NCBI GenBank assembly: GCA_024672315.1
Contig: GCA_024672315.1_4714.1
DNA from: a phage
Direction: 5' to 3' (one strand)
DNA: 64,000 nucleotides
In this document: positions 2,077-60,885 of the stretch, piece by piece
Numbering within the stretch: position 1 is the stretch's first letter
Layout: each line of letters starts with the position of its first letter
Notes under the pieces: generated by a model
Databases searched by the model: none
What the model was told of the DNA's origin: nothing
The model's input: the letters and a program-made list of their open reading frames with translations, nothing else
Translations under genes and position numbers: made by a program

Positions 2077-2084
2077 GTAATATA
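2077..2084 (-). promoter_or_regulatory. putative phiKZ-type early promoter core (TATATTAC on minus strand)
   Basis: Plus-strand GGTAATATAAGC = minus-strand GCTTATATTACC, about 58 nt upstream of the 2019 start; shares the extended motif with sites at 7356, 13212 and 42173. Confidence 0.5.
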
Positions 2085-2223
2085 AGCGTGAATAATTTTG
2101 GATTCCGGCTGAGTTATCGCTCAGCATGCAAGGCATCCCGCCGAAGCGAGACACCTTGCACTAACGGAAAATATTCGCGTTACCTTCTGAATCGAAGACT
2201 CAGAATGCGATGCTAAAGCATGA

Positions 2224-9153: not shown

Positions 9154-9530
9154 CTGTTTATCGACTATATCTTCATCCTCATTGCGAGGAGTCTCCCGTT
9201 TGGGTCTGTGTTTAACAGAGCCTACTCTACTCGACGTCGCGTCTTTCGATAGTCTGTGAGCACACATCTTAACAAACATTCGTGGATTCCTAAACAGGTG
9301 AATGTTCTTGTTGAGATGCTTCGCTGCGGATTATTCCCGTCCTACCTCTTTTACCGTACCCAGTTCATTACGCTGGCCCTCATCTATGTCACCACGATGA
9401 GTTGGTGTGTAGTCCGATTACAGAAACTTCCCGTCAATTAGAGAGTTTTAACTACGTTCCTGTTACCAGAAACCAGATCCCGACGGTATCAATAAATCAA
9501 CGTAAGTTATTGATTTAATTGAAAAAACTG
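9154..9530 (-). ncRNA. group I self-splicing intron (second intron in the nvRNAP-type beta' gene)
   Basis: Minus-strand core elements in canonical 5'-to-3' order: P-like AATTGACGGGAAG (plus 9427-9439), Q AATCCGCAGCG (9322-9332), R GCTCACAGACTATCG (9247-9261), S AAGATATAGTCGA (9161-9173). Exon nucleotide before the intron is U; intron ends in G at 9154. Only about 9 nt follow S, so no P9 is evident and the exact 3' boundary is uncertain. Confidence 0.6.
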
Positions 9531-9549
9531 AAATCTGCATTATCTAAAT
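9531..9549 (-). CDS. 19-nt micro-exon of the beta'-like gene encoding (Y)LDNADF
   Basis: Minus-strand AT TTA GAT AAT GCA GAT TT; joined to one upstream exon nucleotide (T) and to the downstream exon (C GAC GGA GAC) it gives YLDNADFDGD, restoring the universal NADFDGD Mg-binding motif. Flanked by intron 3' G (9550) and followed by the next intron. Confidence 0.5.
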
Positions 9550-9932
9550 CTTCAGTATGGTTCGCTACGCCATACCCGCACATACGTGCAACTTACGTCT
9601 TTCACGTAAGAAGAGACTATATCTTTCACCCTCAGCATTATCTGGTCGGGGCTCCCATTTCGGCGGTCATCTGACCGGTGGTTTCCCACGCCGCTTGGCC
9701 CTAACGCCCGTAAGCGATAGTCGTTGAGCGCATCTCCGTTCTGGAGACTTCGCTGCGGATTCCCCAATCCTTGCCGCTTTTACCATACCCGAATGATTAG
9801 TTCAGCCCCACGCGCTGTTCCCAGGCGTGGTTGGTGGACAAGGCTCTAAGTAGGTTCCCGCATTAGAGAGTTCCTCGTAACAACATTTCTGCGTTACTGG
9901 GCCTAACGACCCTTTCAAGATCATCACGCTTA
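9550..9932 (-). ncRNA. group I self-splicing intron (first intron in the nvRNAP-type beta' gene)
   Basis: Minus-strand P TAATGCGGGAA (plus 9855-9865), Q AATCCGCAGCG (9751-9761), R GCTCAACGACTATC (9716-9729), S AAGATATAGTC (9615-9625), P9-like hairpin CTTACG-tgaaaga-CGTAAG (9592-9610). The 5' boundary at 9933 is a best guess (exon ends in U, frame gives Tyr when joined to the micro-exon). Confidence 0.65.
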
Positions 9933-11151
9933 ACCCGATGGTGTTATCCTGCGGATCGCGTTTAACCTTGGTGATTTCAAGACATTGGTTACTGCTTCGG
10001 TCAAGTGATGGGTTTCGAACAAAGCCACACACAATCCCATCGAACGGTGTATCAGCAATAAGCTCATCATGCAGCTCGCTCATCATCGGATGATAATTAC
10101 GGACATGTTCCGCAACGAACGCACGTGCTGCTCTTGGTGAATAACCACGATGGAATAACTTGGATTGGATATGTTCTTTATTGGTTAAAGTAAATGGTGC
10201 GTATGGGAAATGCAGATGATAATAACGATGGTTCGCTGTTATCGAACTGATTACGGTACGCGTGGTAAATGGATGTAATGTACCTAATATGTTTTTACGT
10301 GTGATACCTTTCTTCTTACCGATGAACTCATCGAAAATCGCCGCATGGTATTGCAGCAGCTTCAATTGCACTTTCGCCATCCAGTTTTCTTTCTTTCTGG
10401 CGCTCAAAGGTGTTGTTGGATGATAGATACTGTTCAACGTACCGATAGCATCGATCGCACCTTCCATTTTGCTATCCGCATAACGACCGGTTGGCGTATT
10501 CTCGATAACGAACATCATGGCCGCAGGAAAGCTGATATACTGACTGAAGAACTTATCACGATGAATACGGATGAATTCTCGTAGCGTGTCAACTTTCTCC
10601 GTGTTCTTCGGTCCACGTAACGTCGGTCCTTTATACAAGATCTCCATGATGCGATCGAAGTTCTGTATAAAACTATTTACGCCACGTCGTATCCCGAATA
10701 CATCGAATTGCTGCTCCAGATAGTTCTTGAGTTCGATGGGTCGTTTTACATTTGGACGGTAACTGGCATCAATGAGCCACGTCATCGTTTCAAAGCTTTT
10801 GATATTCAACTCGCTTGCCAGCACGAGATGGACCAACGGGTTAATGAACGCATCGATTCCTTCAGGAACGCGCGCCCACACCGTCGAACGAATCTCCTGT
10901 TCTGCTGGGTAGGTTACAACCGTTTTACAGTTTGGACACACCGTGCCGAGCAGCTCACCACGATTGTAGAAACCACAACCACATTGTGGCGTGATATCCA
11001 ACGTATCGCTGGAGTAAACACGGGTGATAAAACTGTTTAATTTCTTCTTCTCTTCGACGACTTTTGTATCGTAATCGTTCAACAAAATCGGCGTAAAAGG
11101 AAGTTCTGCGAGCTGTCTATCGAAACTCACGATATCGAGCATGATGGCCAT
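9933..11151 (-). CDS. RNA polymerase beta'-like subunit (nvRNAP-type, N-terminal part), 5' exon
   Basis: Zn-finger-like CGCG...CPNC near the N-terminus; GKKKGITRKNILGTLHPFTTRTVISS resembles beta' [39 protein letters not shown] resembles NRAPTLHRLGIQAFEP (switch 2). ORF-track runs on to 9802, but the last ~43 codons are judged intron read-through. AGGAGA RBS. Lies immediately downstream of the chimallin candidate, as gp54-gp55 do in phiKZ. Confidence 0.7.
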
Positions 11152-44889: not shown

Positions 44890-45600
44890 TCACCCCCTCA
44901 GAATCGCTTCTGTTTCGCTGATCGTATCCGCAGGATAAACCAAACTACTATCGATTGCGTTATTCACGTAACCACCCATTAAGTTGGTGATGGTGTTTGT
45001 ACCACTATCGATAATGTTTCGTAATCCGATGTCGATGGCTTTTAACGTACTGCGTTCCTCATCCGAAAGCAGACGCCACGCTCGACGACGATCGTTGGGG
45101 TCGCGTGTGGTGATAGAAGCCAGAACAGAATAGATGCTGCTGTCTGCGTTCAATTTAACGCCAGCCAATTTCGCTGACGTGTAGAGCAGCTGATATTTTT
45201 CTTTCTCAGTGTACCACCATGGCACTTTACCGAGCGTATAGATCTCGTTATACATCAGCCATGGGAAAGAGTTTCGCATCACGACATCGGTCGACACCAA
45301 CACCGTGTCGCCGGGAAGAAACACAAATTCATAAAACGGCTGACCATCCATGGTAATCTCACGGATGTCAGACGGGTCGATATGGAGCTGGGTCAATGCG
45401 TGGCTGACACCATACTGTCCATCAGGAAGAATAATCGGGCAGCACGCACAAACCCGGTTCTCACTCCCGATGATAGATAAACCCAATCCCTCGTAACGGA
45501 CGGGTGTCAGAATCGAACACCCGCCACGAGTAACAACAGATTTATCTTCTTGTATGTCCCAGTCCGCAAGCACCGCAGCACCGTTGCGGACAAGCGCCAT
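44890..45600 (-). CDS. hypothetical protein
   Basis: 236-aa ORF tightly packed with its neighbours. Confidence 0.5.
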   Translation of the reverse strand: MALVRNGAAVLADWDIQEDKSVVTRGGCSILTPVRYEGLGLSIIGSENRVCACCPIILPDGQYGVSHALTQLHIDPSDIREITMDGQPFYEFVFLPGDTVLVSTDVVMRNSFPWLMYNEIYTLGKVPWWYTEKEKYQLLYTSAKLAGVKLNADSSIYSVLASITTRDPNDRRRAWRLLSDEERSTLKAIDIGLRNIIDSGTNTITNLMGGYVNNAIDSSLVYPADTISETEAILRG

Positions 45601-47124
45601 TTACACCTCGCTAATCTGGATAACGTAAAGCTGCTGGGCCACGTAATCGGTGGTCAGATGCATCGTTGCGATGGTCGCTGCTTCGAACACCGTGAGTTCA
45701 GGACGTTCACGCATAATCAAATCGATCTCGTCGATGAGACGGTTAACGCCTTGAGCGTCTTCATGATGCATCGTTTTCACGTAGAGTGTACGGAAATACT
45801 GCTGGAAGTTAGCTACGTCGGTATCGGTAAGGTTAGCAACTTCACCACGCACAATTTCCATGACCTTCTTACGGGTATCTTCATCGAGGTCTACCGTAAT
45901 CAGGTCAGCAAATACACCCTGCAATGCCAGCGCGTATGCACGTAAGCGGTTTGCGGCTTGCTGGCTGGCTTTCATGTTGATGTAGTTACGGTAATGCTGC
46001 ATGAAGCCAGCACCGTTAGCCAGCAGTTCATCTTTACTGATGAGTTCACGCTCTAACAGGACAGCTGCGGTTAATGCTTCCGGTGAACCGCCTTCTTGCA
46101 GATAACCCATGTAGACATCTGCGTTAACGAAAATCGTCATCGCTGACGCGTCTTCAGCACGTTGAATCTGAGAAGCTGACGGTGCAGAAAGAATCAGTTC
46201 ACCACGCTCCATACGCAGGATACGATCACGACCGACGCGTGCCATCCCGTTAATCGCTGCAGCACGAGCTTGTTGCATTTTAGCGCGGTAGTTTTCAAGC
46301 ATCATGTCGTTGCCGTCCTGGATATCTTCCAGCAGGTTAACGGCCCACATATAGCAGAGGAATGCAGGAGTTGCCGCAGCGCGGGAACCGTGGAATGCAA
46401 CGTTATCGCTATCCGGATACGTAATCAGATAAGCGGTGTTGTTCGAAGAAGGAGCGGAACCACGGAAGAAATAGTTGTAGATGTCTTCCAGTGCCTGGTC
46501 GCTCATCCCTTCCGTCGCTTGCTGTACAAAGCGATCCAGGTTTTCATTACCGGTATACAGCAACGTACGCAGCTTATCACCGGTGATAAACGCAAGCTTT
46601 CCGGTTGGAGTGAAATCGTTATTAATCGAAATCAAGCCGTTAAGATCGTAATCGCTAACTAAGGCCTGGTACTCTTCGGAGTTATAAAACTCAGGATAGT
46701 AACTCAGACTTACTGTCGGGATCAGTTTCGGTGCCAGGATGATCGAATCGATGCGTTTTTCCAGTTCCGGGTACAGCGCACGGCATTTCGGCAGGATGGT
46801 ATTACGCGCCAACTCTTTGGCATACACCACTTTTTCCACCACGTCTTGAACTGCGGTCTGTAAAACTTCATCGTGGATATAAACCTCGCGTTCGCTGGCA
46901 GGTGCTACAACGCCATCTTCGGTTTCATCAAGTGTTTCAGCAACAACCATACGTTCAGCACTAAGCTGCACCAACGCATCTGCGTCTTCCGGTGGCTGGT
47001 TCCAATGCATGGTTTCACAAACCGCGGCTAACGGGGTACCTGGAATGGCTGCGACGATTTGGTTACGTTTGATAAACCCTTCGACAATAGGCTCAACGGC
47101 ATAAACGGTTTTATTGGTGATCAT
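45601..47124 (-). CDS. hypothetical protein
   Basis: 507-aa ORF. Confidence 0.5.
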   Translation of the reverse strand: MITNKTVYAVEPIVEGFIKRNQIVAAIPGTPLAAVCETMHWNQPPEDADALVQLSAERMVVAETLDETEDGVVAPASEREVYIHDEVLQTAVQDVVEKVVYAKELARNTILPKCRALYPELEKRIDSIILAPKLIPTVSLSYYPEFYNSEEYQALVSDYDLNGLISINNDFTPTGKLAFITGDKLRTLLYTGNENLDRFVQQATEGMSDQALEDIYNYFFRGSAPSSNNTAYLITYPDSDNVAFHGSRAAATPAFLCYMWAVNLLEDIQDGNDMMLENYRAKMQQARAAAINGMARVGRDRILRMERGELILSAPSASQIQRAEDASAMTIFVNADVYMGYLQEGGSPEALTAAVLLERELISKDELLANGAGFMQHYRNYINMKASQQAANRLRAYALALQGVFADLITVDLDEDTRKKVMEIVRGEVANLTDTDVANFQQYFRTLYVKTMHHEDAQGVNRLIDEIDLIMRERPELTVFEAATIATMHLTTDYVAQQLYVIQISEV

Positions 47125-47432: not shown

Positions 47433-47458
47433 GAGCAGGGGCATGACGCCCCCTGCTC
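47433..47458 (-). terminator. intrinsic terminator immediately after the RNAP beta-like gene
   Basis: GAGCAGGGG-catgacg-CCCCTGCTC hairpin starting 1 nt after the TAA at 47459-47461, followed on the minus strand by GTTTATTTCG; a T-rich run also follows on the plus strand. Confidence 0.6.
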
Positions 47459-50400
47459 TTATTTAGCGTCGTTAAAGTAAATATCAACAGCTCGTTCCGT
47501 TGCGTAGAGGAGACCAAGATTCACAGTCCCAACCACTTCCGGTGAACCGATGATACGGTTAGCGATACTGGTGCCACTGAAGATAGCATCAAGGGTGTGC
47601 CCGTCTTCGGTTTTGTTCACACCATGACCCACGGAAGAGACAACGGATTTCGCTTGTGCTGCGAAGGTACCTTTATCACCCATCCCCGCACCAAGGTCGT
47701 AACGCATGAAAATACGGATAGCGATCTGGTTCTCGCCTAACGGATTACCGTCTATTCTCACGTTACTGTTATTGATACGCCCTGTTGTTGCCTCGCTGAG
47801 TTTCAGTTCCTTGACGCGTTTAGCTCGCGCTTTATCCGCTTCACCGACGAGCGCCGCCATGGTTTCGCTCATATCCTCAATCTGAGCGCGGTACAGTACA
47901 TCGATCTGTACAACTTCACCATGAACATCAGCACGTGGGTTATACTGACTCATACGACGTAATGCTTCAACGGCTTCCTGACTCTCATCACTCAGATCAG
48001 TTGCGATCGGTTCTTCCAGTGTTGCAAGAATCGTTCGCGGTTCAACGTGGTCGCCGATTTTCACAAGACCACGAATGTTGAGATGGGCGTCAACGATAAG
48101 CGTACGGCTCTTAATCGATGGTGTTACGAGACGATCAGCAAGATTGTCGAAGATATACGAACTGTCCTCGTGAGTCTCTGGAATATCCAGAATACCGACA
48201 AGAGACAGAACACCTGCGCGCCAAACAACCTGACCCGGGTTCCACCAATCGCGTTTAAAATAAAGACGATGGAAAACCACCACATCCTGATCCTTAACGC
48301 GATCCCCGACTTTATAATCGGTAATGAGATCATGGGGATAATACTTACCTGGTCCTTTCCCGATTATCGTACCGAGCTGGAAAACCTCTTCCCCTAACTC
48401 TGGATCGTCGTATTGTATCGTAAGCGCGGTTTTGGTGACCTTCTTCACAACACCATCGCCTTGGGCAGCTGCTGCGAAGAGCTTACCAACACGATGCGCG
48501 ATGACAGTCTCACCACCTGTACGCCACGGTTGTACATCGTAACCTTCAGCAGCAATCATGCGGTTGTGTTGGATCCCGACAAAGACCAGACGTTTTCCAT
48601 CGTCGCGGTCTACAGCCGGAACAGCTAACGCTGACGTACTCATTACCGATGAAATGCCGTCTGTCTTTTCATCGAATGGTCGTGTTTCACCATATACCGA
48701 CACGATATTAGCATTAGGTGCGAGGTAAGCAGAAATACCTACGTCCCCGCTATCTTTCGTACCCTCTGACACAATACCAACATCGGACTTGTCGTATTCA
48801 CGATCGCGTGCGCGTCGAAGCGATGTCTTTGAACGACCTCCGATACCGGTCATCGTCGCTTCTTCACCCTGCTTGATATCCAACATCGGGTTGGTTTCAT
48901 CAATCACGATGGAAGCACTGTCGTCGAGAATCTGGTTCCAGACACTTACCGGACTGATTGATATTTTCTGGCGATTTCCTTGACTGCTGTTCTCATTCTG
49001 ACGAATAGCACCAACCAGGTCCTTATACACCAATTCAGCGAACTTATCGTACGTTTTAAAACGTTGGTAGTTCACATCGTTCGTGTTAGGAGCCCAATCA
49101 TCCAGAAGCAGTTCAACAGCACGCAGTAACAACATGGCGAAATCGGTAGGTTCTCCCATGTTCTGTAGCAACGTACGGCTTACCGGATCAACGAAAAGAC
49201 GCTCCATGAGTTCAAGTTCGCGTAAATGACGAACCTTAAGTCCAGCACCATCGACAACGTTAAAATAGATATCTCGATTGTCAAAAGCGCCGCGAGCGTA
49301 ACCGATGTAGTTACGGTATTCGTTAAACCCACCCAGCAACAACGTCGTCATGCGATCGTCTTTACTGAAGATCAAACTTTCGTCATCAAAGCTCACCGCG
49401 AATTCATCGGGTGCTAGACCCATACGAGAACCGCGAGGTACCGTACGATAGTTCGCTTTAAGATGTTCTAATAACGGGGTAAGTCCACCCAGATAACTTA
49501 GAACAACACCGACCGGAATACGTACACCCATGAATTCAAGATCGGCGGCTTCGATCGGCATCTTAGCCGCATTGATACCGAAGAAATCAGGGAACGTCCC
49601 TACAGGTGTTGGTGTTTGTCCTGACTGACAGATATAGAGCTGATTGCGTTTATCGATTGCTAAGAATTCACCCAGCGTGTTACGCGCAAACGTCAGGAGC
49701 CCTTCGGCTAACTGTTCGTTGAACCGATCTTCCCCGATGAACTCCGGCAATGTCTTTGTATCGAGACGTATATCCCAATCAGCAAATTGGATTTGGGTAT
49801 AGTTGCGTGCAAGCACAGCGAAGTAATACGGAACTTTGACGGCCGGATCAAAGACGTTACCGCGTTTCAACGTGGTTAAGGGTGAGGATTTATCGTAATA
49901 CATCGCCGTAAGTTGACGTGTTAGCCAACGACCGGCGTTATTAACGACGCGCTCTGAACGTTTAACAAACACCTTACCGTAGGCGGTACTCAACGCAACT
50001 TCAGATGACGATACCTTTCTAATAGGTTTATCAACACGTTGTTTACGCATCCGGTATTTGATGCCGTTAACGACATAAATGCCATCCTTACGAACCTTCG
50101 GCAACATCACCGGGAACGTGGTCGGGACACCGCCTACGGGAGCCAGTTTAATCGTGATGACTTGATAATCCCCCATCACGTCAACAACATCTTCGACTTT
50201 ATATCCCGTAACAGGGTAACCCGCCTGCTGTACCGCAACAACAGCGGCTGCGATGTCCTTTTGCATTACGTGTTCAACGTAATGTTTATCCCACACCGCA
50301 AGCGTCGATTTACACAGGCTCTTATCGACGATAACATCCGCTTCCGGCATAACCTTTGCAGGAGCTAATTTCGCGGCTTTTGGTTTAACTTCAACATACT

Positions 50401-51805
50401 CGGCAAGTGTTAATCCAGAACCGTCGGGTGCTTCGATTTCATGGATGGCGTCAGCATTACGCATCGCTGCTTTATATTGGACACCGCTTAACTGACCTGC
50501 ATCGGCCAGATCGCTCGCGCGCACCAACACCGCATCCGATAACGACTGAATATACTCACCGTGTGTTTTTGGTAACGTTGTCGCGTCAAAGACATCAACC
50601 TTTTCTTCTTCGGTATCGTCGGTAACGACTTCGAAGAGATCGTCGGTAATGTCCTGATCTTCATCAGGTTGGAAATCCGGTTGTACTTCTACCCCAGGTA
50701 CTTCACGGACATCTTCGAACGAGCGTTCTACAATGGCGTTCCACGCATCAGCGTCATCGTCTTCATCCGACCCGCCGACCAACTCAGCTTCTAACTCATC
50801 GGGATCAAGAACGGTAGCCAGATCCTCACCGTTAGGAAGCACGACGTCGCGATCATCGTACTCCGCATCCGGGCTGTCCGCAAGAATATCTCGCTCCTGA
50901 CGAAGAACCTGTTCCTCTTCTTGTTTCTGTTCTTCTTCATTCGCGCTCTGCGACCACAGACGTGTTACCGCCATCATCCAACGACGTTGGAAGGTTTCAA
51001 GTGTCGTTTTATCGAGTTCTTCCCCTTCCTTTACAAGTCCGGTACGCCATTCTTCCAGCAGGCCGAGATTCAGCGTAAAGAAGTACACGCCGTCTGTGAA
51101 TACAACGTTAAGCTTGTCCAGCGTGGCTCTGTCTAACGAAGCCATCGTGCTGTTCTCACGATCGGTTCCCAGCCAGCGGAAGAAGTCAAAGAACGACAGC
51201 TCCTCCGGTGTGGCGAAATTCATGAGGTTGTTACGGGTCGGTGCCTGTTGCGTGGTACGCATCAACGAAATCTTCGGCAATGTTGACGGTATACGGAACA
51301 ACAAAAAGTGTTGGCGATCGCTTTGCTGTGCGATTTCGTTGGCTTTCGACCAAATTGTTTTACGTACATTGAACCATTCATCATACCAACGGGTGAGCGT
51401 TGGACGATAAATGTACATGTGGTTAAGATGCGCGTAGTTAGCAACGATCTGAGCGTTGATGTTTTTCTCCACCGTGCTTAGATCGGTAACCAAACGAAAA
51501 CGACGATGTGATGCACGATAATCCAATTTCGCTCGTGGGAGTTGGAATCGTTGATCGCGTCGAGGTGCACCCTGTTTGGTTGCGAGATCATCAGCAAACG
51601 AAATCCATAGTTGAGCATTTTCTTTACTCAGCATGTATTCGTTTTCTGGAGGACCTATCAATGAAGGATCCGTTGCGATGTAATGATAGACAGCATAACG
51701 CGGCAGCTGCAATAGCTGCACTAAACGTAATCTTGGTGATAGTAACTCTTGGTAGCGTCTGACACCAAACTGTCGGTAGTAATCAAGGTATTTAAGTTTT
51801 GCCAT
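47459..51805 (-). CDS. multisubunit RNA polymerase beta-like subunit (vRNAP-type, N-terminal part of beta)
   Basis: 1448 aa; TGIGGRSK...VGIVSEGTKDSGDVGISAYLAPNANI resembles the beta fork-loop region; GDKGTFAAQAKSVVSS...TEDGHTLDAIFSGTSIANRIIG resembles the GDKxxxRHGxKG...DENGxPVDIVLNP region; the protein ends about 60 aa after this, with no GEME-type C-terminal region, consistent with a split beta. GGAG RBS. Large acidic insertion in the N-terminal half. Confidence 0.75.
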   Translation of the reverse strand: MAKLKYLDYYRQFGVRRYQELLSPRLRLVQLLQLPRYAVYHYIATDPSLIGPPENEYMLSKENAQLWISFADDLATKQGAPRRDQRFQLPRAKLDYRASHRRFRLVTDLSTVEKNINAQIVANYAHLNHMYIYRPTLTRWYDEWFNVRKTIWSKANEIAQQSDRQHFLLFRIPSTLPKISLMRTTQQAPTRNNLMNFATPEELSFFDFFRWLGTDRENSTMASLDRATLDKLNVVFTDGVYFFTLNLGLLEEWRTGLVKEGEELDKTTLETFQRRWMMAVTRLWSQSANEEEQKQEEEQVLRQERDILADSPDAEYDDRDVVLPNGEDLATVLDPDELEAELVGGSDEDDDADAWNAIVERSFEDVREVPGVEVQPDFQPDEDQDITDDLFEVVTDDTEEEKVDVFDATTLPKTHGEYIQSLSDAVLVRASDLADAGQLSGVQYKAAMRNADAIHEIEAPDGSGLTLAEYVEVKPKAAKLAPAKVMPEADVIVDKSLCKSTLAVWDKHYVEHVMQKDIAAAVVAVQQAGYPVTGYKVEDVVDVMGDYQVITIKLAPVGGVPTTFPVMLPKVRKDGIYVVNGIKYRMRKQRVDKPIRKVSSSEVALSTAYGKVFVKRSERVVNNAGRWLTRQLTAMYYDKSSPLTTLKRGNVFDPAVKVPYYFAVLARNYTQIQFADWDIRLDTKTLPEFIGEDRFNEQLAEGLLTFARNTLGEFLAIDKRNQLYICQSGQTPTPVGTFPDFFGINAAKMPIEAADLEFMGVRIPVGVVLSYLGGLTPLLEHLKANYRTVPRGSRMGLAPDEFAVSFDDESLIFSKDDRMTTLLLGGFNEYRNYIGYARGAFDNRDIYFNVVDGAGLKVRHLRELELMERLFVDPVSRTLLQNMGEPTDFAMLLLRAVELLLDDWAPNTNDVNYQRFKTYDKFAELVYKDLVGAIRQNENSSQGNRQKISISPVSVWNQILDDSASIVIDETNPMLDIKQGEEATMTGIGGRSKTSLRRARDREYDKSDVGIVSEGTKDSGDVGISAYLAPNANIVSVYGETRPFDEKTDGISSVMSTSALAVPAVDRDDGKRLVFVGIQHNRMIAAEGYDVQPWRTGGETVIAHRVGKLFAAAAQGDGVVKKVTKTALTIQYDDPELGEEVFQLGTIIGKGPGKYYPHDLITDYKVGDRVKDQDVVVFHRLYFKRDWWNPGQVVWRAGVLSLVGILDIPETHEDSSYIFDNLADRLVTPSIKSRTLIVDAHLNIRGLVKIGDHVEPRTILATLEEPIATDLSDESQEAVEALRRMSQYNPRADVHGEVVQIDVLYRAQIEDMSETMAALVGEADKARAKRVKELKLSEATTGRINNSNVRIDGNPLGENQIAIRIFMRYDLGAGMGDKGTFAAQAKSVVSSVGHGVNKTEDGHTLDAIFSGTSIANRIIGSPEVVGTVNLGLLYATERAVDIYFNDAK

Positions 51806-51808
51806 GGG

Positions 51809-51988
51809 TTAGGCTCCACGAGGTCCCGTTAAGTTGCGTAATAGGAACGCAACCGTATCGTAACCAATATCGATGTTGAATTTATTTTTACCACTTACCC
51901 AGAAAGCACGCTTCTTGTGCGAGTTGGTAATTTCGTCAATGGCTTCCATGGAATAAAGAACGTTAACCGAGACCGTATCGCCGTCGAA
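51809..51988 (-). CDS. RNA polymerase beta'-like subunit (vRNAP-type), 3' exon encoding the catalytic loop
   Basis: Minus-strand in-frame translation from 51988: FDGDTVSVNVLYSMEAIDEITNSHKK...GPRGA-stop, matching beta' [20 protein letters not shown]; stop lies 3 nt before the beta-like gene's ATG. Not in the ORF track (no start codon). Confidence 0.65.
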   Translation of the reverse strand, partial: FDGDTVSVNVLYSMEAIDEITNSHKKRAFWVSGKNKFNIDIGYDTVAFLLRNLTGPRGA

Positions 51989-52507
51989 CCTTGTCTTCGC
52001 CTCAGGTCGCTACGCTGAGACCGCCTGCGTGGATACGTACATCACAGGCTGCTTGCACTTTCATGCAAGAGGAGACTATATCAAACCGTCAGCTTCACCT
52101 GCTACGGTAACCTACACTTCGAAGACGCTTGTCCTCTACAGGGTGGTAAATCCCTTAGTCGTTGAACCTGCGTTGTTTCACATTCTTGTTTGCAAGAATG
52201 CCGTATTGCTACGCAACAACCAGGCTGCTGATTGCCCATTATCACGCACCTTAGCACCGCTTACGCGGCTTTTCTTTCAGCCTAAGCCTCCGTGGGAGGT
52301 AGTGCATCTCAACTGTTGTTTCCGCCTTTCGGCACCTCATGGGTTGTTGAGCTTTAGGGGTTCCCAGCAATTCGTAGGTTTTTCAAGCACTCCCTTTCGG
52401 GAATACCGGACCAATTCAGTTAGTAAACAACATTATTACCATCCCTCATTCTTAAGGGTTAATTTTTTAAAATGATAAAATTAATGTGTTTTTGGGCTAA
52501 CTCGAAG
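51989..52507 (-). ncRNA. group I self-splicing intron in the vRNAP-type beta' gene
   Basis: Minus-strand P CGAATTGCTGGGAA (plus 52361-52374), Q AATCAGCAGC (52225-52234), R GGTTCAACGACTAA (52155-52168), S GATATAGTC (within 52072-52084), P9-like hairpin CTTGCA-tgaaag-TGCAAG (52052-52069). Exon nucleotide before the intron is U (52508); intron ends in G (51989). Splicing gives ...YLAGLGGD|FDGDTV.... Confidence 0.7.
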
Positions 52508-53974
52508 ATCACCGCCTAAACCGGCGAGGTATGGCGCAGGAACAATAGTCGTTTCTACGAACGAAGCATTAGGTAACCAGTCGGGGTATTCCCATGCGAT
52601 AAATCGTTCATCCGTTATTGGTTCCCAGTTACTATCCAGTTCGGTTTTCGGTTTTGCAGCGACGGTTGTACGCGCGTAACAGGTTAACGGGATAACGGAT
52701 TGCATACCCGATACCGGATAACGTGTTACCATCGCAGCCAGGTTATTCCAGTACTTATATCCGGCGATATAGATAAGCTCGGTGTAAGTAATGGGGTGAA
52801 CATCCGCACCAGGTTTATTCAACATCTCTGGGGGTAATTCACTCATACCACGGAATAACCGAAACGAATCGTTGTTCACATAGACGAGGCAAAGATAACG
52901 TCCATTAACCATGATAGGCTCGTTACGCACACCAGGATCGCTTAAGGTGTTCAATAAACGTTCTATTCCGTCCCATGTTGTAAAGTCATCGATGGTATCT
53001 GGGTCTAACGTGACACGTTCACGTTCCATCGTTTCGATATCGATAAGTTCAACTTCTGTAACATCACGGACAAATATTTCCTGCAAAATCCCCGTACGTA
53101 GCGCATGTTGCGTTACAGGGAGAGCAGCTTTACTCATCTGGTATAACCCTAACTGAACCGCGGTACAGGAAGGCTGGTTAGGCGACCCTAATACCTCCGT
53201 TGTGGGGTTAATTGCCGAAATAACGTTACGGGTTGAGTTCCAAACGCGACGTGAGCCGAACTTACCTTGGAAGATCCCTTTCTTACCCTGGAACATATCC
53301 AACAGTAAAGCGTAGATATCGTTAAATGTTCTCTGTAAGCTCCAACGTTGACCGTCGTAAACGGGATCAGAATAATCTTTTAATCCATCAGGGACGGTGT
53401 TAGAAATTGCAAGGAAACGACGATACAACTCCGTGATTTCTTGCTCGCTTTCATACCCACCTTCTTTTACTTCTATTTCACGTAAGCCTGCAGGCAATAC
53501 CAGTAAGTGACGGGTCATCGCTTTGAACATGTTCTCTTCGACAACTTTAATTCGTAGCTCTCGTTGAGCTGAACCCGTTGAAACGAACTTGATATCAGCG
53601 ACGTGTTGTGCAAAGAACCCGTATCCTGTTTGTCCTGTTAATGCATCAGACGCAACGAAGTCGCGTTGTTCAGGATCCCAACGAGCATACGCCTTTCCCG
53701 ACATGATATCACCATAGAGGTGTTTTAGTCGAATGAGGCGGTCGTAAATGACGGGATGCAGGATTTCAACTTTGCATTCAATCACCGCAAATCGACGGTC
53801 TCGATCTTCACTACCTGCGCTACCAAAGATGGTGTAAGAATAGAAACCATCATCGTGGAAATTACCGGTGCTTGGGTCACGAATGCTCATGCTCGTGATC
53901 TTGGGGAGAAAACGTAACTGCTGTTTATCGAGGTGTAAAATGCTAATGTTAAACGGCTCTCTGACTTTAGCCAT
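52508..53974 (-). CDS. RNA polymerase beta'-like subunit (vRNAP-type, N-terminal part), 5' exon
   Basis: DGFYSYTIFG...RRFAVIECKVEILHPVIY resembles beta' DGLFCARIFG...RRERMGHIELASPTAHIWF but lacks the Zn-finger cysteines; GKKGIFQGKFGSRRVWNSTRNVIS resembles [23 protein letters not shown]. Start set at ATG 53974 with AGAGGAG (ORF-track 54016). ORF-track end 52481 includes 27 nt of intron read-through. Confidence 0.7.
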
Positions 53975-54219
53975 GGAGACACTCCTCTTTACCACCACCG
54001 GCTGCGGCGGTATCATCTGAACACACGAGAGACGTAATGGGTGATGGCGTCACCCATCGCTTCCTTGCCTGATGCCAGGAAGTTATTAGGTTACGTACCG
54101 GCTTGATAAAATCAAGCAGGCGATGTGTGAAGTTACGCTTCAACATTATCAATGCCGAAGGTAAGCTTCGTGCATCACGTTCCAACGTAACATGGGAACG
54201 TATCGAACTGGAGGTATAC

Positions 54220-57200
54220 ATGGTAGATAAAACCCGTGTTGAGGGTGATGATAATTGGGATAACTGGGATGAAGACTTCTCCCTGGATCTCGATTTCAAC
54301 GAACCCAAAGACGATCGTAAACCGATAACACGCTTTGCGATAGGAGCGGTTAAAGGTGCCGCTGAGGATCTTACTTCCTACGAAAGAATGAAGGAGATCG
54401 CCAGAAACGCATTGCCTAAGGGCTACAGCGACGGTATGGATCTTATCGATTCCGCCGTCGGATCCACGAAGGAACTATACAATGAAGCCGTTCGTGACGT
54501 TCTTCCTAAGGTCCAAAGCTCAAAACGGTTAGCTGCACAACTGACCAAGAAATACCGCGCGAGCATGCCCGATTTCTCGAAGAAAATTCTCGAGCAATGG
54601 GAGCGAGAAGCCAAGGAAGAAGACGAACGTAAACATGCTGAAGAAACCCTTCGTCAACGCATGGCGAGCGCGGGGGACGATGAGATTGCCCGCAAGGTTG
54701 CCGAGGCATTAGGCGAATCAGCAAACCAAAACGCGGATCAGTTCGCTGAACAGCAAGCGAAAGAGAGTATCCGTGACGATATCGCTGATAAACGGTACGC
54801 TGTAACCAACAAACAAATGAGTGCGATGCAAGAAGGCGTCGCCAAGATGGTTGGTTTCAACAACGAATTCGCTGCACGTTACATGCGTAAAAGCCTGGAA
54901 CTGAAATATCGTTCCTTAGCGATTCAACGTGCAAGTTTTGATCAGCATAAAAAGTTAGCCGAAGTCTATATCGGTTTATTACAAAACATCCAGAAGAATA
55001 CGGCTTTACCTGATGCGGCTAAAGCGAAAATGTCGGAAGAATTCCGTCGTAGCGCATACCAACGTTTCTTTGGTAATGCGTTAGATGCGATGGGTTCTTT
55101 CGAGAACCGTTTCTTTGCCGATGTTAAGAAGAACCTTGCCACCAACGCATTAGGTGCTTTAAAAGGCGTCGTGTCTGGCGCAAACGATGCGTTATACGGT
55201 TTAAACGAAGCGCGTGACTCGATGTCCATGATGGACGGGATGGGGTCAGAAGGCGATATTAAGGAAATGCAAGGAAAGATGTTGGGTCAGTTCATTGGCT
55301 CAACTGTCGCACCATGGATGGCTAATAAAGGCAGGATGGCGTTACGTGATTTAGCAAAACGCCACCCCAATGCTAAATTCGCAAGTGCGTTAAAAGCCGT
55401 GGATCAAGGTGGTGAGGCTGCCGCTTACACGACGCGTAATCTCGGTAAACTGCTCCAGGAAGATATTCGTAAAAACGAATTCAATCTTAGCGATCCGTTT
55501 TACAAGCAATTAATACGCGGCGCAGGGCGTTGGGCGTTCAACATGGACAGCGGACGTAACTTCCGTGTGATGAACGACACCGCTGAAACGCTGGCGGAGC
55601 AAACGTCTTTCGACGGTTTAACCTACCGCAGCATCAACGAGGTTATTCCAGGCTTTCTTGCACGCATTCTGAAAAGCAGTGAAGGTATCCGCACCGGAAA
55701 CAGCGATCCTGACTACGAGGTCTATGACGGCATCAGCGGGCAATTCGTGTCTCAGCGCACGCGTGAGCAAAGCGTCAACGACACACTGTTTAACAAACGT
55801 ACGTTTGGTTATTACGCCAGCCGTTTCAACGAGGTTATCTCGGTCATCGATCCCGATAAGAAATTATCGGAAAAAGCCAGGAAGGCACTGGCTAAGCAGC
55901 TGGCACGAGATAGCGACGCAAACATCGCATTCGACCCAGCTCGTTTTACGGATGAAAGCAACTTCGATCGTAGTATTGACCGCGACGCTATTAAGGAACT
56001 TTCCACGTACTTTCGTGATCGTTACGGTATTCGTGACGATATCAACGATAAGGGCGAACGTCATCAGGTCATTGGAAACCGCGGGCAATATTACACGGAA
56101 CGTAACCGAGCTGACCTTCGCTACGGTAATCTGAAATCTTTACAGCCGGATATTCAGCGTAACCTTAACCTACTGAAACGTACTGGTGACGTCCAATATC
56201 TGGAACGTATTGGTATCGTAACGAGAAATAGCGACGGAAGCTACTCGGTTAATCACGATCGGTATTTCTCTGAAATCGATCGATACATCGACCGACCGGA
56301 GTACGCTGAACGTAACGACGTTAATACGCGATTAACCGCTCAGGAAACAAGAGCGCTGGCGTTGGGTTATCGTGACGCAAAACCATCAGCTGATGACGTC
56401 CAAAATGCGGGTCTGCCACACATCGGTCGTAAGGCTGTTGGAACAGTAACCGTTGATGAAAACATCGGCTACGATAAATGGTGGAACGACACAGGTGTTA
56501 TCACCACATCGCTTGAAGAACAGAATCGAGCGTGGCAAGAACTCTATCTCGAAGCGTTATCTGAAGCATCCGAACAACGTACTGAAATGCTTGCGTTACT
56601 GAAAGCCATTTCTGAGAAAGACCGGTCTAATAACGTTTCGTTGGACGGCGAAGATGTACCTGAAGGTACGGCACCCATTTCATTTATCGATCGTGCCAAA
56701 CAAAAACTCGGTGCACGCAACCCCTTTAAAGGCGGCCGTAATCTCCTCTGGAAAGGAATTAAAAATACCGCACGTTGGGGTGTTAAAGGCGCGCGCTGGG
56801 GTGCAGAACGCACGTTGGGTAGTTTGGTAAATTCTGGCCGTCGCATTATCAATTTCAACCGTTTTGTGTTCGGTGCATTATCCAAAGTCGATCAGGTTCC
56901 GTTTGACATTTACGTTAAAGGGGAATCCCAACCACGCATACTGGCTGCTAAACTTCGTCAGGGGTTATACTTCGACGAAGCGACAGGAAAAGCCGTAAAA
57001 CGGATGAAGGATATCAAAGGCCCACTCGTTGATGCTGATGGAAACATCGTAATCAGCAACGAGGATATCGAGAAAGGGTTGGTCACTCGCGCGGGTCGTG
57101 CCTTTGAGAATTCAGGACTTAAGGCGTGGGCACGTGAAGGTCTTAATGGAATCACGACGGTATTAAGTCTACCACGGATGTTAAAACGCGGTGCGGTCGA

Positions 57201-60200
57201 GATCTACAAACAGCTTGACAAGACGCCCGACGTTTACGTCAAGGGAGAATCAACGCCTCGTCTGTTGTCCATGGTGTTAGCAGCGGGTGGGTATTTCCGT
57301 CGGTCGGATGGACAAGTCATCAAAAATCTTGAAGACATCGATGGTGATGTTGTTGATGCACAAGGTAACGTCGTACTTACGCTTGCCGACATGCAGAAAG
57401 GACTTGTCGATAAATACGGTAAAGCGATTCGTCGCTTAAAAGAAAAGCTCATCAACTTCGGTGTAAAAGCTTTTACGTTACCGTTAACGCTGCTACGTAA
57501 GACAAAGGACATCCTTAAAGCCCTTCCAGGTAAAGCCGTTAACGGTCTACGACGGATGGGATTAAACTTCCAATCACCTGACGCATTACTGGTGGGAACA
57601 ACGTCGAGTATGGTAGATCGTCTCGATGCGATTTACCAGCTTCTTGACCAGCGTATGCCGGGTGGTGATAAGGATTACCGCGATTGGAATGGCGATGGTG
57701 TTCGAGAAGGATCGCTGGAAGACCTAAAACGTAAGCGTGAAGCCAAGGAAAACGGTAAGGACGACACCGGCAAAGATTCCAATAAAGGGGAAGAAAAGGA
57801 GAAGAAACGAGGATTACTCGGAAGCCTTTTCGATATGCTCGGCGATACCGCATTAGGCAAACGACTCATGGCGAGTCCGCTTGGAAAAATTCTAGGTGGT
57901 CTTGGGGCGGTGTTAAGCGGCGGTGCATCGTTAACCGGGTTGTTGGGCAAGGGTCTCATTAGTGGAACCGGCGCGCTGGTCAAGGGGGGACTAAGTGCGG
58001 CAGGATGGTTAGGACGTGGTGCGTTAATGGCGGGTGGGGCCGCGTTGAACGCCGTTGGTGGGTTATCGGGATTAGGTGCATTCCTTATCTCACCTGTTGG
58101 GCTTGCTATCGCTGGCGGTGCATTGGCTGCTTATGCTGGATGGAAGATCTATCAGCATTTCGCTGAGAAGCCTGACCCGATGCAGAAACTCCGTCTTATT
58201 GCATACGGTGCAAAAGGGGACGATAAAGACTTCAATAAGAAGCTGCTTGCGACAGAAACATACCTCACCGATCACGTGGTTATGACCGGGGATACCATCG
58301 GATTCGATCCGAAAGCGGATTCTGAAAAGATTCTCGAAATCTGGGAATTGTCCCTGGAAGATTCCGACCGAATGAACGAATGGAAACGCTGGTATCTGCA
58401 TCGTTTTATTCCTGTTTTCGCTCGTGCGTACAAACTCTGGAAAGAGCATATGCCGGACGAGAAGAAATACATGGAAATGGATAAATATCCGAACGGTGAG
58501 AACAAAGTGAAATGGTCGGAAGCGTTTATCTGGCCTTCCGATAGTCCTGACGGTCCGTATTACGTCGAAGCTAACCCGTTGGGTTCTTCTGGTGCGACGC
58601 GTTATATTGCTGGTCAAGACGTCAAAACCTTGATGCTGAAACAACTCGAAGCCATCAAGAAAGAGTACCAGAATCAGATTAAGCAATACACTCATGATGA
58701 GGCTATTGCTGATTGGTCACGGATGTCTGACACGCAACGTAAATCCGTTGCGCCTAACGCATTACGCGGTCAGAAAGCGTCGTTACGTTTTAACGATAAA
58801 CGTTACAACAGTGCTGGCGCTAAAGGACGACAGAAGCTTGACGCAACCGCGGTTATTGAAAGCGTAGACCGTCGTGGTAGAAAATGGGTTGCCGGTGGAT
58901 ACATCGATGAACTCACCAGTCTCCGTGTTCGTGCGTACGGTATCAAGGTTCCGTTGTTAAGTCAGATAAAAGTGCTGATGGAACTCGAAGACGCTGTAGA
59001 ACCTGGCGTAGTCGCTGAAGGTAAAGGTGTTAAATACGGTGGCGATCTTGTTGCGCTCTACAAGAAATTCGCGACGAAGTTCGGAAGAGACGTTAACAGC
59101 AAGCGGGATCAGGATATCTGGTTCGCTTGGATGAATAACCGTTTCCTGCCCGTCTTTTTAACCTATTACCAACAAGTTAGCGACATGGGCGGTCAAGGAC
59201 TTCTGTCCGACGTGGTACAGAACCTGAAAGACAGCCAACGCTGGGAAATCGGTGAAGCACTTGTCGCAACGCAATACCGTGATGAGAAAGGTACACTGCA
59301 GCCTGTATGGTCCTGGAATAGTTGTGGTTTCTCCGGTACTGAAGCTAACACCACCAGCAGTTCAACAAAGAGCCAGCTCGATCTGTTAAAAGAATATGCG
59401 GATAAAGAGAAGGTTCGTGAGAAGAACGCGGAAGCATCGCAAGAGGATGCCGATAAATTATCGAAGATCCAAGAGCTGATGATGAAGCAGGCTGGGTACG
59501 AGAAGAAAGACGGTGTCTGGCAGAAGAAATCACGCATTACCGGCGGGATGAGTAACGCCGAAGCGAATTACAACCCCAATGGGAATAGGGTAGGTGCAAG
59601 CAGCTTTACTGCTTCGGCTACTTCCAGTGCTGGGTTGGGGTCAACCGGCGATCTTACTGGATTGCCTAACATGGGCTTACAGAAACCTGCAATGGGACCA
59701 GGTCCTGAAGCTGGACGTCGTGCGCTTGTTAAATCCGCTGTAAAACGCGGCATTACCGATCCAATGGAAATGGCGATGTTCCTCGCGAACATCGAACATG
59801 AATCAGGGAACTACACTCACGTACGTGAGGGGAACTATAAGACACCAGAGCGTCTTAAACAGGTCTTCCCTTACAAATTCCGTGATGTACAGGATGCCGC
59901 ACAGACGATCAGCATGGGGCCGGAAGCGGTATTCGAACGTGTGTATGGTAATCGTAAAGATCTCGGGAACACACAGAAAGGGGACGGGGCGAAGTATTTA
60001 GGACGTGGCTTCATTCAGGTTACCGGTAAAGCTAACTACGCTCGTCTGTCCAAGACCTTGAATAAGGATCTTGTCAGCGATCCGACATACCTGGAAACGC
60101 CGGAAGGTGCGGCGGAAGGTAGTGTCGCATGGTGGCTCAACCGAGGTAACGTGTTACGCGATCCCGCAAAACGGGGTGATGTACGCCAAGTTCGTTATCT

Positions 60201-60885
60201 GGTTAACGGCGGTTTTAACGGATTACGCGATGTTGAACAACGTTCAGCTTATTGGATTCAGGCGGCTAAGAATGGCACCCTGAAGAGAATGATGGACGAG
60301 TTATCAGGGTCAACATCAGACGATCAAGCTGAAGGACCGACCACTGCCGAACAGGTGAAGAACGAAGCAGCACAAGAGGCAAACGGAACACCTGCTGTAA
60401 GCAACGATCCGCAAGCCCCAGTATCTTCTACTACCCCTGAAGCTAAACCGTCTGCGGCTGCCGGGACGGCCCCAGCACCTGGAGAAGCATCACCAACGCC
60501 TGGAAGTTTCGAAACAGCAAAAGCCGCGGCAGGACAACCGACATCAACTCCAGCACCTAGCGATTTGCCGTCAAACCCGGGCGCAAATCGAGGGATATCG
60601 GTTCCGAATACGCCTGCACAGGTTGCGCAGTCTGCGACACAAACATCGGTTGCAAGTGAGAACTTCTACGGTAGCGCAGGTGAAATTCTCCGACAGCAGC
60701 TGACCACGCAGCAGAACATCGAGAAGAACACCGGTAGAACGAATGAACTTATTTCGGAATTAATCCAAGCCGTTAAGGGTTCTTCTATCGGTAAGGGTTC
60801 TGCAGGTCCTTCTCAACAACAGACGATGTCGCTACCTAATCGTCCGCAAGGAATCTCTCCAACACGGACAAGGTACGCACAGTAG
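54220..60885 (+). CDS. giant virion-associated protein with C-terminal GH19-type lysozyme domain (phiKZ gp181-like)
   Basis: ORF-track 54103..60885 begins at a TTG; ATG at 54220 has GGAGG 7 nt upstream. A Gly/Ala/Leu-rich hydrophobic segment (LGGLGAVLSGGASLTGLLGKGLISGTGALVKGGLSAAGWLGRGALMAGGAALNAVGG) lies mid-protein; the C-terminal domain contains IEHESGNYTHVREG and YLGRGFIQVTGKANY, typical GH19 lysozyme/chitinase signatures. Gene order (RNAP beta, beta', giant hydrolase) matches phiKZ gp178-gp180-gp181. Confidence 0.8.
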   Translation: MVDKTRVEGDDNWDNWDEDFSLDLDFNEPKDDRKPITRFAIGAVKGAAEDLTSYERMKEIARNALPKGYSDGMDLIDSAVGSTKELYNEAVRDVLPKVQSSKRLAAQLTKKYRASMPDFSKKILEQWEREAKEEDERKHAEETLRQRMASAGDDEIARKVAEALGESANQNADQFAEQQAKESIRDDIADKRYAVTNKQMSAMQEGVAKMVGFNNEFAARYMRKSLELKYRSLAIQRASFDQHKKLAEVYIGLLQNIQKNTALPDAAKAKMSEEFRRSAYQRFFGNALDAMGSFENRFFADVKKNLATNALGALKGVVSGANDALYGLNEARDSMSMMDGMGSEGDIKEMQGKMLGQFIGSTVAPWMANKGRMALRDLAKRHPNAKFASALKAVDQGGEAAAYTTRNLGKLLQEDIRKNEFNLSDPFYKQLIRGAGRWAFNMDSGRNFRVMNDTAETLAEQTSFDGLTYRSINEVIPGFLARILKSSEGIRTGNSDPDYEVYDGISGQFVSQRTREQSVNDTLFNKRTFGYYASRFNEVISVIDPDKKLSEKARKALAKQLARDSDANIAFDPARFTDESNFDRSIDRDAIKELSTYFRDRYGIRDDINDKGERHQVIGNRGQYYTERNRADLRYGNLKSLQPDIQRNLNLLKRTGDVQYLERIGIVTRNSDGSYSVNHDRYFSEIDRYIDRPEYAERNDVNTRLTAQETRALALGYRDAKPSADDVQNAGLPHIGRKAVGTVTVDENIGYDKWWNDTGVITTSLEEQNRAWQELYLEALSEASEQRTEMLALLKAISEKDRSNNVSLDGEDVPEGTAPISFIDRAKQKLGARNPFKGGRNLLWKGIKNTARWGVKGARWGAERTLGSLVNSGRRIINFNRFVFGALSKVDQVPFDIYVKGESQPRILAAKLRQGLYFDEATGKAVKRMKDIKGPLVDADGNIVISNEDIEKGLVTRAGRAFENSGLKAWAREGLNGITTVLSLPRMLKRGAVEIYKQLDKTPDVYVKGESTPRLLSMVLAAGGYFRRSDGQVIKNLEDIDGDVVDAQGNVVLTLADMQKGLVDKYGKAIRRLKEKLINFGVKAFTLPLTLLRKTKDILKALPGKAVNGLRRMGLNFQSPDALLVGTTSSMVDRLDAIYQLLDQRMPGGDKDYRDWNGDGVREGSLEDLKRKREAKENGKDDTGKDSNKGEEKEKKRGLLGSLFDMLGDTALGKRLMASPLGKILGGLGAVLSGGASLTGLLGKGLISGTGALVKGGLSAAGWLGRGALMAGGAALNAVGGLSGLGAFLISPVGLAIAGGALAAYAGWKIYQHFAEKPDPMQKLRLIAYGAKGDDKDFNKKLLATETYLTDHVVMTGDTIGFDPKADSEKILEIWELSLEDSDRMNEWKRWYLHRFIPVFARAYKLWKEHMPDEKKYMEMDKYPNGENKVKWSEAFIWPSDSPDGPYYVEANPLGSSGATRYIAGQDVKTLMLKQLEAIKKEYQNQIKQYTHDEAIADWSRMSDTQRKSVAPNALRGQKASLRFNDKRYNSAGAKGRQKLDATAVIESVDRRGRKWVAGGYIDELTSLRVRAYGIKVPLLSQIKVLMELEDAVEPGVVAEGKGVKYGGDLVALYKKFATKFGRDVNSKRDQDIWFAWMNNRFLPVFLTYYQQVSDMGGQGLLSDVVQNLKDSQRWEIGEALVATQYRDEKGTLQPVWSWNSCGFSGTEANTTSSSTKSQLDLLKEYADKEKVREKNAEASQEDADKLSKIQELMMKQAGYEKKDGVWQKKSRITGGMSNAEANYNPNGNRVGASSFTASATSSAGLGSTGDLTGLPNMGLQKPAMGPGPEAGRRALVKSAVKRGITDPMEMAMFLANIEHESGNYTHVREGNYKTPERLKQVFPYKFRDVQDAAQTISMGPEAVFERVYGNRKDLGNTQKGDGAKYLGRGFIQVTGKANYARLSKTLNKDLVSDPTYLETPEGAAEGSVAWWLNRGNVLRDPAKRGDVRQVRYLVNGGFNGLRDVEQRSAYWIQAAKNGTLKRMMDELSGSTSDDQAEGPTTAEQVKNEAAQEANGTPAVSNDPQAPVSSTTPEAKPSAAAGTAPAPGEASPTPGSFETAKAAAGQPTSTPAPSDLPSNPGANRGISVPNTPAQVAQSATQTSVASENFYGSAGEILRQQLTTQQNIEKNTGRTNELISELIQAVKGSSIGKGSAGPSQQQTMSLPNRPQGISPTRTRYAQ

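Follow-up and report, generated by a model that had tools for sequence, protein, structure and literature searches.

The window described here is a 64,000-nucleotide (nt) stretch of phage contig GCA_024672315.1_4714.1 (NCBI GenBank assembly GCA_024672315.1). It very probably carries the virion RNA polymerase (vRNAP) gene cluster of an Escherichia coli chimallivirus, a close relative of Escherichia phage vB_EcoM_Goslar (hereafter Goslar), which is a nucleus-forming jumbo phage of E. coli. The 14 kb around the gene cluster share 96.1% nucleotide identity with Goslar over 99% of the sequence, and the whole window is colinear with Goslar 158708-225289, a few indels excepted. No record closer than Goslar was found in the phage collection searched; two further relatives are approximately 95-96% identical, namely L010, a Logan contig (SRR28381429), and L014, an IMG/VR contig (IMGVR_UViG_3300045988_173921). 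Here we describe the polymerase genes of this cluster, in which a group I intron lacking an endonuclease open reading frame (ORF) separates the codons of the catalytic motif of the beta'-like subunit, together with the adjoining gene for a large predicted virion lysin. The central features of the locus are the following (positions are those of the window):

47459..51805, minus strand: beta-like subunit gene, homologue of phiKZ gp178 / Goslar gp207, 1448 amino acids (aa)
51809..51988, minus strand: exon 2 of the beta'-like gene, 59 codons plus stop, beginning FDGDTVSVN
52507..51989, minus strand: group I intron without endonuclease ORF, 519 nt, Rfam RF00028, 63.6 bits
52508..53974, minus strand: exon 1 of the beta'-like gene, 489 codons, ending ...AGLGGD
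54220..60885, plus strand: phiKZ gp181 homologue, 2221 aa, predicted virion-associated peptidoglycan hydrolase

A sequence-only reading of the same DNA had reported three ORFs, at 47459..51805 (minus), 52481..54016 (minus) and 54103..60885 (plus), lying in the relative order of phiKZ gp178, gp180 and gp181. All three are present at these positions, their order and orientation are those of phiKZ gp178 (minus), gp179/gp180 (minus) and gp181 (plus), and homology searches against gp178, gp180 and gp181 identify each protein as a full-length or near-full-length homologue. Synteny with phiKZ covers gp175-176-177-178-(179)-180-181-182 and extends beyond the stretch first claimed, the flanks holding homologues of protease gp175, gp176 and gp177 on one side and of gp182 on the other. 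Gene order and strands of phiKZ gp176-gp182 are as in the window, with proteins 22-38% identical, and Goslar gp210-gp204 (NC_048170, 204655-222175) has the same gene content and order at 96% nucleotide identity. Three elements had escaped the sequence-only reading: the intron splitting the beta' gene at DFDGD, a gp176-like subunit at 44890..45600, and a lytic domain that is not homologous to its phiKZ counterpart.

The beta'-like gene and its group I intron

The 511-aa ORF previously taken as the beta' gene is indeed beta'-like and lies where it was placed, but it is incomplete: on the minus strand it reads ...LAGLGGD, then LRVSPKTH and a stop, ending early inside the group I intron. Exon 2 is located in the 675 bp that seem to separate the two polymerase ORFs, and its first codons are TTC GAC GGC GAT ACG. 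DFDGD is the universal Mg-binding motif of beta', and it is present in this gene only once exon 1 and exon 2 are joined. Linking GAT (52508) to TTC (51988) gives GGDFDGD at residues 487-493 of a spliced protein of 548 aa, the predicted junction being ...GGCGGTGAT followed directly by TTCGACGGC. No in-frame start codon precedes FDGD, and the motif would therefore be expressed only by splicing. Exon 2 encodes the peptide FNIDIGYDTVAFLLR and the tryptic peptide spanning the junction contains ...LAGLGGDFDGDTVSVNVLYSMEAIDEITNSHK; the exon-2 peptides are identical in Goslar.

The likely start codon is ATG 53974 and not 54016, a GAGGAG Shine-Dalgarno sequence being found 7 nt upstream of the former and none before the latter. 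The phiKZ gp180 alignment begins at this methionine and Goslar gp205 starts at the same position; with this start the mature beta'-like protein would have 548 aa. The spliced protein is 38% identical to spliced phiKZ gp180 over 549 columns (E 2e-119), and positions 3-538 of the 539 of phrog_2986 are covered by the spliced protein only. At least 80% of it is matched by 285 of 310 phage records, most of the matches listed reaching residue 557-558 uninterrupted, and the Goslar match halts at residue 503. The closest solved relative is an N-terminal beta' subunit, that of the AR9 RNA polymerase (RNAP; PDB 7S00/7S01, chain d, E 5e-4), for which a second stretch (0.7 bits, statistically insignificant) pairs GDFDGD with GDYDGD across the splice junction. 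This Bacillus phage subunit belongs to a non-virion polymerase set of another phage lineage and is, as its E value indicates, very distant. Exon 2 differs from Goslar and L010 by 4 and 6 nt, respectively, all of these differences being synonymous, and its protein is 100% conserved in the three phages; exon 2 is under purifying selection. Its stop codon lies 3 nt before the beta-like ATG, and this spacing, taken with a strong terminator-like hairpin after the beta-like gene, makes the beta'-like and beta-like genes look like one transcription unit.

The intron is inserted between the first D (GAT) and the F (TTC) of the catalytic DFDGD. Rfam RF00028 is matched at 52436..52052 (minus strand) over the full model (positions 1-253), with 63.6 bits against a gathering score of 50 and an E value of 1.9e-14. 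Nucleotide homology to Goslar runs across the 5' splice site, ends after the first intron base (GAT followed by C) and resumes 95 nt later in the window and approximately 1570 nt later in Goslar. This break, the shared phiKZ insertion site, the colinearity of the spliced protein with uninterrupted homologues and the synonymous changes in exon 2 are independent lines that fix the junction; excision and GTP-dependent self-splicing are predicted from the intron anatomy. By inspection, P1 would be formed by exon GAU and the first intron base C pairing with the guide sequence GGUC at 52412..52409, with a U.G wobble at the 5' splice site, and the intron 3' end reads ...CAAGG ahead of exonic UUC, the terminal base being G. 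The intron comparison comprised four introns, from the window, L010, Goslar and phiKZ, of which three are close to one another. In all four alleles (G/U/A)GUCC follows directly after the variable segment and puts exon U(-1) opposite G, and the +1 base pair covaries: the window and Goslar have C-G, L010 has A-U and phiKZ has U-A (by inspection, with no statistical score). On these grounds the first 95 nt, which are AT-rich and unrelated to Goslar, are read as a variable P1-loop insert and GGUC as the guide.

The Rfam match and the four-intron alignment together give a layout of P2, P3, P4-P6 with a long P5 extension, P8 and P9, with a pair of small hairpins separating P7 from the 3' strand of P3 and two more 3' hairpins before the terminal G. 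In RNAalifold, both partners had changed in 16 of 109 predicted pairs, three of these lying in P3 and two in P5, in a model that omits the P3/P7 pseudoknot (leaving P7 unmodelled) and mis-pairs the 3' third of the intron; whole-intron minimum-free-energy folding was uninformative for the core. Missing from the window intron, within what is assigned as P8, is an extension of 49 nt that the three relatives have. The intron holds no endonuclease ORF, sense-strand ORFs reaching at most 51 aa, and the window allele is thus a non-autonomous member of the gp180-intron family. When phage genomes were searched with the intron by sensitive blastn, Goslar was the sole close relative and the 95-nt insert was unmatched. 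A 148-aa GTG ORF runs antisense to the intron (52029..52475, plus strand) and is broken by the 49-nt insertion in the relatives; it was regarded as chance.

Several points weigh against splicing. The ONT-cappable-seq study of phiKZ, a long-read transcriptome, saw, in the conditions of that experiment, no splicing of the homologous gp179 intron (PMC10914365), and the Goslar gp205 coding sequence is annotated as an unspliced ORF. P1 of the window allele is short, with three exon base pairs and one intron pair. A compact alternative P1 hairpin (GGUGAU / GUUA(G)CC, 6-nt loop) is drawable in the window only; it was set aside, there being no such guide at that place in Goslar or phiKZ. Splicing in the window phage is, moreover, predicted from sequence, and the endonuclease gene is absent from the window intron. 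The unspliced Goslar annotation, the phiKZ transcriptome and the missing endonuclease gene would suit an interpretation in which the 511-aa ORF is a complete beta'-like protein and the 675-bp stretch a decayed, non-splicing intron remnant, the polymerase copy being dead or served by another catalytic subunit. We consider it very improbable. Exon 2 has kept its protein intact in three phages through synonymous changes only, it holds the only FDGD codons of the gene without a start codon of its own, and exon 1 joined to exon 2 is colinear with homologues that have no interruption. The intron itself passes the Rfam gathering score over the whole model, and compensatory changes preserve the pairing of its core helices. 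In phiKZ, the Gp180 protein is reported with DFDGD (PMC10612078).

We therefore retain the spliced gene model, in which the N-terminal catalytic beta'-like subunit, of 548 aa, would be made after excision of the intron from the pre-mRNA. Unspliced RNA would yield a truncated protein, ...GGD-LRVSPKTH, without the last two Asp of the triad, and splicing would restore ...LAGLGGD joined to FDGDTVSVN... and bring ribosomes within 3 nt of the beta-like start. The Goslar records (NC_048170 / MK327938) and ORF-based readings give a beta'-like subunit without the catalytic aspartates; the correct product would be the spliced protein of 548 aa. The Goslar records include intron features derived from Rfam, but the splice is not annotated: gp205, like the non-virion gene gp247, appears as an unspliced ORF running into an intron, and exon 2 of gp205 is unannotated.

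Remaining subunits of the virion RNA polymerase

Three further features accompany the beta-like gene on the same strand:

44890..45600, minus strand: homologue of phiKZ gp176 / Goslar gp210, 236 aa, putative fifth vRNAP subunit (extreme C-terminal beta' segment)
45601..47124, minus strand: homologue of phiKZ gp177 / Goslar gp209, 507 aa, virion protein encoded between the vRNAP genes
47433..47458, minus strand: terminator-like hairpin directly 3' of the beta-like gene, a 9-bp stem with 7 G-C pairs, then a T-rich tail

The beta-like protein is 31% identical to phiKZ gp178 over 1484 aligned columns and its full length (E=0), and it matches phrog_3148 end to end. GDK occupies residues 1376-1378 and TEDG residues 1399-1402, which leaves 46 aa between EDG and the C-terminus; the stop had been placed about 60 aa after a GDK...DENG region, which is a loose fit. 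The assignment to beta was made with a profile of four homologous sequences against the Thermus RNAP beta subunit (1119 residues). This profile aligns colinearly with Thermus beta 394-464, 535-704 and 821-880 (E 8e-7), and the three stretches take in the EHDD and GDK...DG regions, the third stretch alone scoring below 0. Since the alignment spans 394-880 of 1119, the last approximately 220 beta residues, including the GEME region, are absent, which bears out the earlier statement that the protein lacks a C-terminal GEME-type segment. Some results count against the assignment: a single-sequence PDB search of the beta-like protein gave no match, Pfam and NCBIfam scans gave no RNAP match for either subunit, and the evidence for beta homology consists of a small profile and PHROG labels. 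A word-index protein search returned only three relatives.

Relative to Goslar, the beta-like gene carries 187 nt differences, 164 of them at third codon positions, and 12 aa changes; the protein of L010 has 7 substitutions in 1448 residues, and the L010 DNA there (gene and flanks) is 94.9% identical. Judged from these sequences, the gene is under very strong purifying selection. An acidic low-complexity stretch (38% Asp+Glu) at residues ~286-400 (window 50606..50950, minus strand) divides an N-terminal region of about 285 residues from the beta-homologous body. In phiKZ gp178 an acidic segment occurs in a similar place and is not alignable with that of the window; the segment may be a linker or packaging-related. 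The Goslar record annotates a terminator at the site equivalent to the 47433..47458 hairpin.

The gp176-like gene is situated 1.9 kb downstream of the beta-like gene. Its 236-aa product is 28% identical to phiKZ gp176 over the full length (BLASTP, E 3e-34) and matches phrog_2926 end to end (E 4e-56). SPN3US gp244 and phiKZ gp176 have been proposed as the missing fifth vRNAP subunit, representing the C-terminal part of beta' (PMC5105663), and both occupy the same position as the window ORF relative to the prohead protease and gp177/gp178. The assignment of those proteins to beta' region a20 rests on weak profile matches and the genetics of that study, and for the window ORF the identification is by homology. 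The intervening 507-aa protein is 22% identical to phiKZ gp177 (BLASTP, E 9e-8; phrog_3841), and Goslar gp209 is reported to be present in more than 200 copies per virion (bioRxiv 10.64898/2026.04.21.720040).

Three of the five vRNAP polypeptides, the homologues of gp178, gp180 and gp176, are thus encoded in the window, and tblastn with phiKZ gp149 and gp80 gave no significant match within it. In Goslar the gp149 homologue is gp196 (228757-229431, 39% identical to phiKZ gp149, E 1e-47), approximately 3.5 kb beyond the position matching the right end of the window, and the beta' gene related to gp80, gp078, is found at 88 kb. The sequence-only reading had held that the remaining beta and beta' portions must be encoded elsewhere; this applies to the gp149-like and gp80-like genes, as seen in Goslar, but not to the gp176-like subunit, which is inside the window.

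Both polymerases of these phages are split beta/beta' enzymes and PHROG labels both 'RNA polymerase beta subunit', which would fit the genes studied here encoding the non-virion (middle/late) enzyme instead of the packaged one. This is scarcely credible. Homologues of the non-virion subunits gp55 and gp68 are separately encoded in the window, which excludes that assignment for the studied genes. Furthermore, tblastn of the window gave E=0 for gp178 and 1e-95 for gp180, with no match to phiKZ gp71, gp73, gp74 or gp123 at E<=1e-5. The studied genes sit among head-protein genes, adjoining the prohead protease and the gp176/gp177 homologues, and their Goslar orthologues are found in virions. Specifically, Goslar gp78, gp196, gp205, gp207 and gp210, the five vRNAP subunits, were detected in purified virions by mass spectrometry (bioRxiv 10.64898/2026.04.21.720040), and phiKZ Gp180, which carries DFDGD, was found in virions and co-precipitates Gp178, Gp80 and Gp149 (PMC10612078).

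With the cluster assigned to the virion enzyme, we propose that the beta-like subunit supplies all of beta minus the C-terminal ~220 residues and the gp176-like protein the terminal beta' segment. By homology with phiKZ and Goslar, the five subunits would assemble, enter the head, be ejected with the DNA and transcribe the early genes; virion packaging and early-promoter activity of the window enzyme are likewise expected by analogy with these two phages.

The gp181-type lysin

Divergently transcribed from the polymerase genes, the 2221-aa protein starts at ATG 54220, which has a GGAGG Shine-Dalgarno sequence 6 nt upstream; neither TTG 54103 nor the GTG annotated as the start of gp204 in the Goslar record has a ribosome-binding site. 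It is 25% identical to phiKZ gp181 over residues 35-693 and 887-1730 (E 2e-45 and 4e-37) and matches phrog_3201. The two thus share the non-enzymatic body of ~1700 residues and the place beside the gp180 homologue. One domain is distinguished within it:

59725..60261, plus strand: GH19-type muramidase domain, residues ~1836-2014

This domain matches GH19-type phage endolysins (9EOI, E 2e-24; 7R6S; 4OK7, E 4e-19), and the Pfam GH19 model scores 23.8 bits, under its cut-off of 25.5. A lysozyme domain had been noted at the C-terminus; the domain is present, but it is not strictly C-terminal, being followed by a tail of 190 aa rich in Ala, Ser, Thr and Pro. At the equivalent place, residues 1885-1978, phiKZ gp181 has a Pfam SLT domain (28.4 bits) that gives no alignment with the GH19 domain of the window. 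GH19 versus SLT is a module swap within an otherwise homologous virion lysin of approximately 2200 aa, in which the catalytic modules are non-homologous and the role appears to be the same.

The gene product is labelled 'tail fiber protein' and 'putative chitinase' in the Goslar records, and its enzymatic domain resembles soluble phage endolysins; it could accordingly be viewed as a tail fibre or as an endolysin acting in lysis from within. We attach very little weight to either alternative. Approximately 1500 residues are homologous to phiKZ gp181 at the same genomic position, and for phiKZ gp181 a role as virion-associated lysin in the puncturing device has been described (PMC5380687). A size of 2221 aa and a Gly-rich hydrophobic stretch at residues ~1200-1300 are also atypical of endolysins. 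As a gp181-type penetration lysin, the protein would open the peptidoglycan during tail penetration with a GH19 module instead of SLT, its enzymatic role being predicted from sequence.

The hydrophobic stretch (window 57820..58120, plus strand) is rich in Gly, Ala and Leu (GLLGSLFDMLG...GGLSGLGAFLISPVGLAIAGG) and resembles membrane-inserting or tape-measure-like segments; the equivalent region is spanned by the phiKZ alignment. An Rfam S15-leader match within this gene (54951..55056, plus strand; 25.5 against 39.5 bits) was regarded as chance.

Non-virion polymerase genes and intron alleles in related phages

The non-virion beta' gene (phiKZ gp55-like, 8916..11151, minus strand) adjoins the chimallin gene, with its gp55 match at 9895..11151, and its NADFDGD codons are interrupted by two ORF-less introns 13 nt apart. 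The features of the non-virion enzyme are:

433..2154, minus strand: phiKZ gp68 homologue, fifth subunit of the non-virion RNAP (tblastn 24% over 534 aa, E 1e-34; phrog_3209)
9530..9154, minus strand: intron B, 377 nt, Rfam 47.8 bits, common to Goslar
9543..9531, minus strand: 13-nt mini-exon between introns A and B, ATAATGCAGATTT
9908..9544, minus strand: intron A, 365 nt, Rfam 30.8 bits, codons contiguous in Goslar

The gp68-type fifth subunit, whose gp68 match lies at 463..1953, has no cellular counterpart. Introns A and B are both under the Rfam gathering threshold, and their support comes from the Goslar comparison and from the colinearity of the spliced product, which has 497 aa (...ILKGYNADFDGDAMNNH...) and is colinear with uninterrupted homologues. 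In Goslar, intron B contains gp186, an HNH gene situated close to the 3' end of the intron, and a 13-nt mini-exon, CGACGGTGACGCT, is followed by a third intron that is absent from the window. The phiKZ gp55 intron lies at a fourth site, between N and ADFDGD. The annotation correction described for the vRNAP gene applies equally to this gene, the mini-exon and exon 3 of gp247 being unannotated in Goslar.

The intron of the virion beta'-like gene occurs at the same codon in Goslar, where the core, from the guide to the 3' end, is 86-97% identical. The Goslar intron measures 2044 nt and carries in its P1 loop gp206, the gene for a 490-aa HNH_3+NUMOD1 endonuclease, where the window has its 95-nt insert and L010 a hairpin of 38 nt. 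The phiKZ gp180/gp179 intron has the same insertion site, between LGAD and FDGD, and the same P2-P3-P4 layout as the window. Its HNH gene, gp179, is upstream of the guide, at the endonuclease position of Goslar, and its core is smaller, measuring 337 nt from the guide; HNH_3 proteins are encoded by the alleles of both Goslar and phiKZ. A second site is known in the beta-like subunit, at the conserved DD codons, to which the PhiPA3 gp210 intron homes. Neither the window (48604..48599, minus strand) nor Goslar has an intron there, whereas the 96%-identical L014 (10530..11023) has an ORF-less group I intron of approximately 490 nt exactly at these codons (Rfam 54 bits).

Among genomes at least 95% identical there are consequently three P1-loop cassettes in one intron (HNH gene, 95-nt filler and 38-nt hairpin), presence or absence of the beta DD-site intron, and three insertion sites within approximately 30 nt of the non-virion beta' NADFDGD codons, with 13-nt mini-exons. 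The window phage has three introns and no endonuclease.

The vRNAP module itself is textbook knowledge for chimalliviruses, and the cluster with its split subunits, the phiKZ gp180 intron and vRNAP-gene introns in general are already published. New in this work are an ORF-less form of the intron bearing another P1-loop cassette, the splice junction stated explicitly along with exon 2, for which Goslar has no annotation, and the presence of GH19 where phiKZ has SLT. A precedent is the mobile PhiPA3 gp210 intron in the vRNAP gene gp211/209, from which it is known that introns and HNH nucleases act in phage-phage competition (PMC11620839). That intron is likewise of group I and likewise interrupts catalytic-region codons of a chimallivirus vRNAP gene, but its position is after the conserved DD of a different subunit, the beta-like homologue of gp178, and in the window that site is empty. 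By analogy, the catalytic-site codons of the RNAP genes in the Goslar lineage might be an active group I intron battleground, with ORF-less introns perhaps serving as cost-free 'immunity' alleles that destroy the target sites of nucleases from co-infecting relatives; we put this forward tentatively, as a possibility that we regard as rather doubtful. Near-identical phages differing only in intron and endonuclease content form a natural series in a model phage infecting E. coli. This series could be used for testing homing, endonuclease loss and intron-mediated competition, so far shown only for PhiPA3/phiKZ in Pseudomonas.

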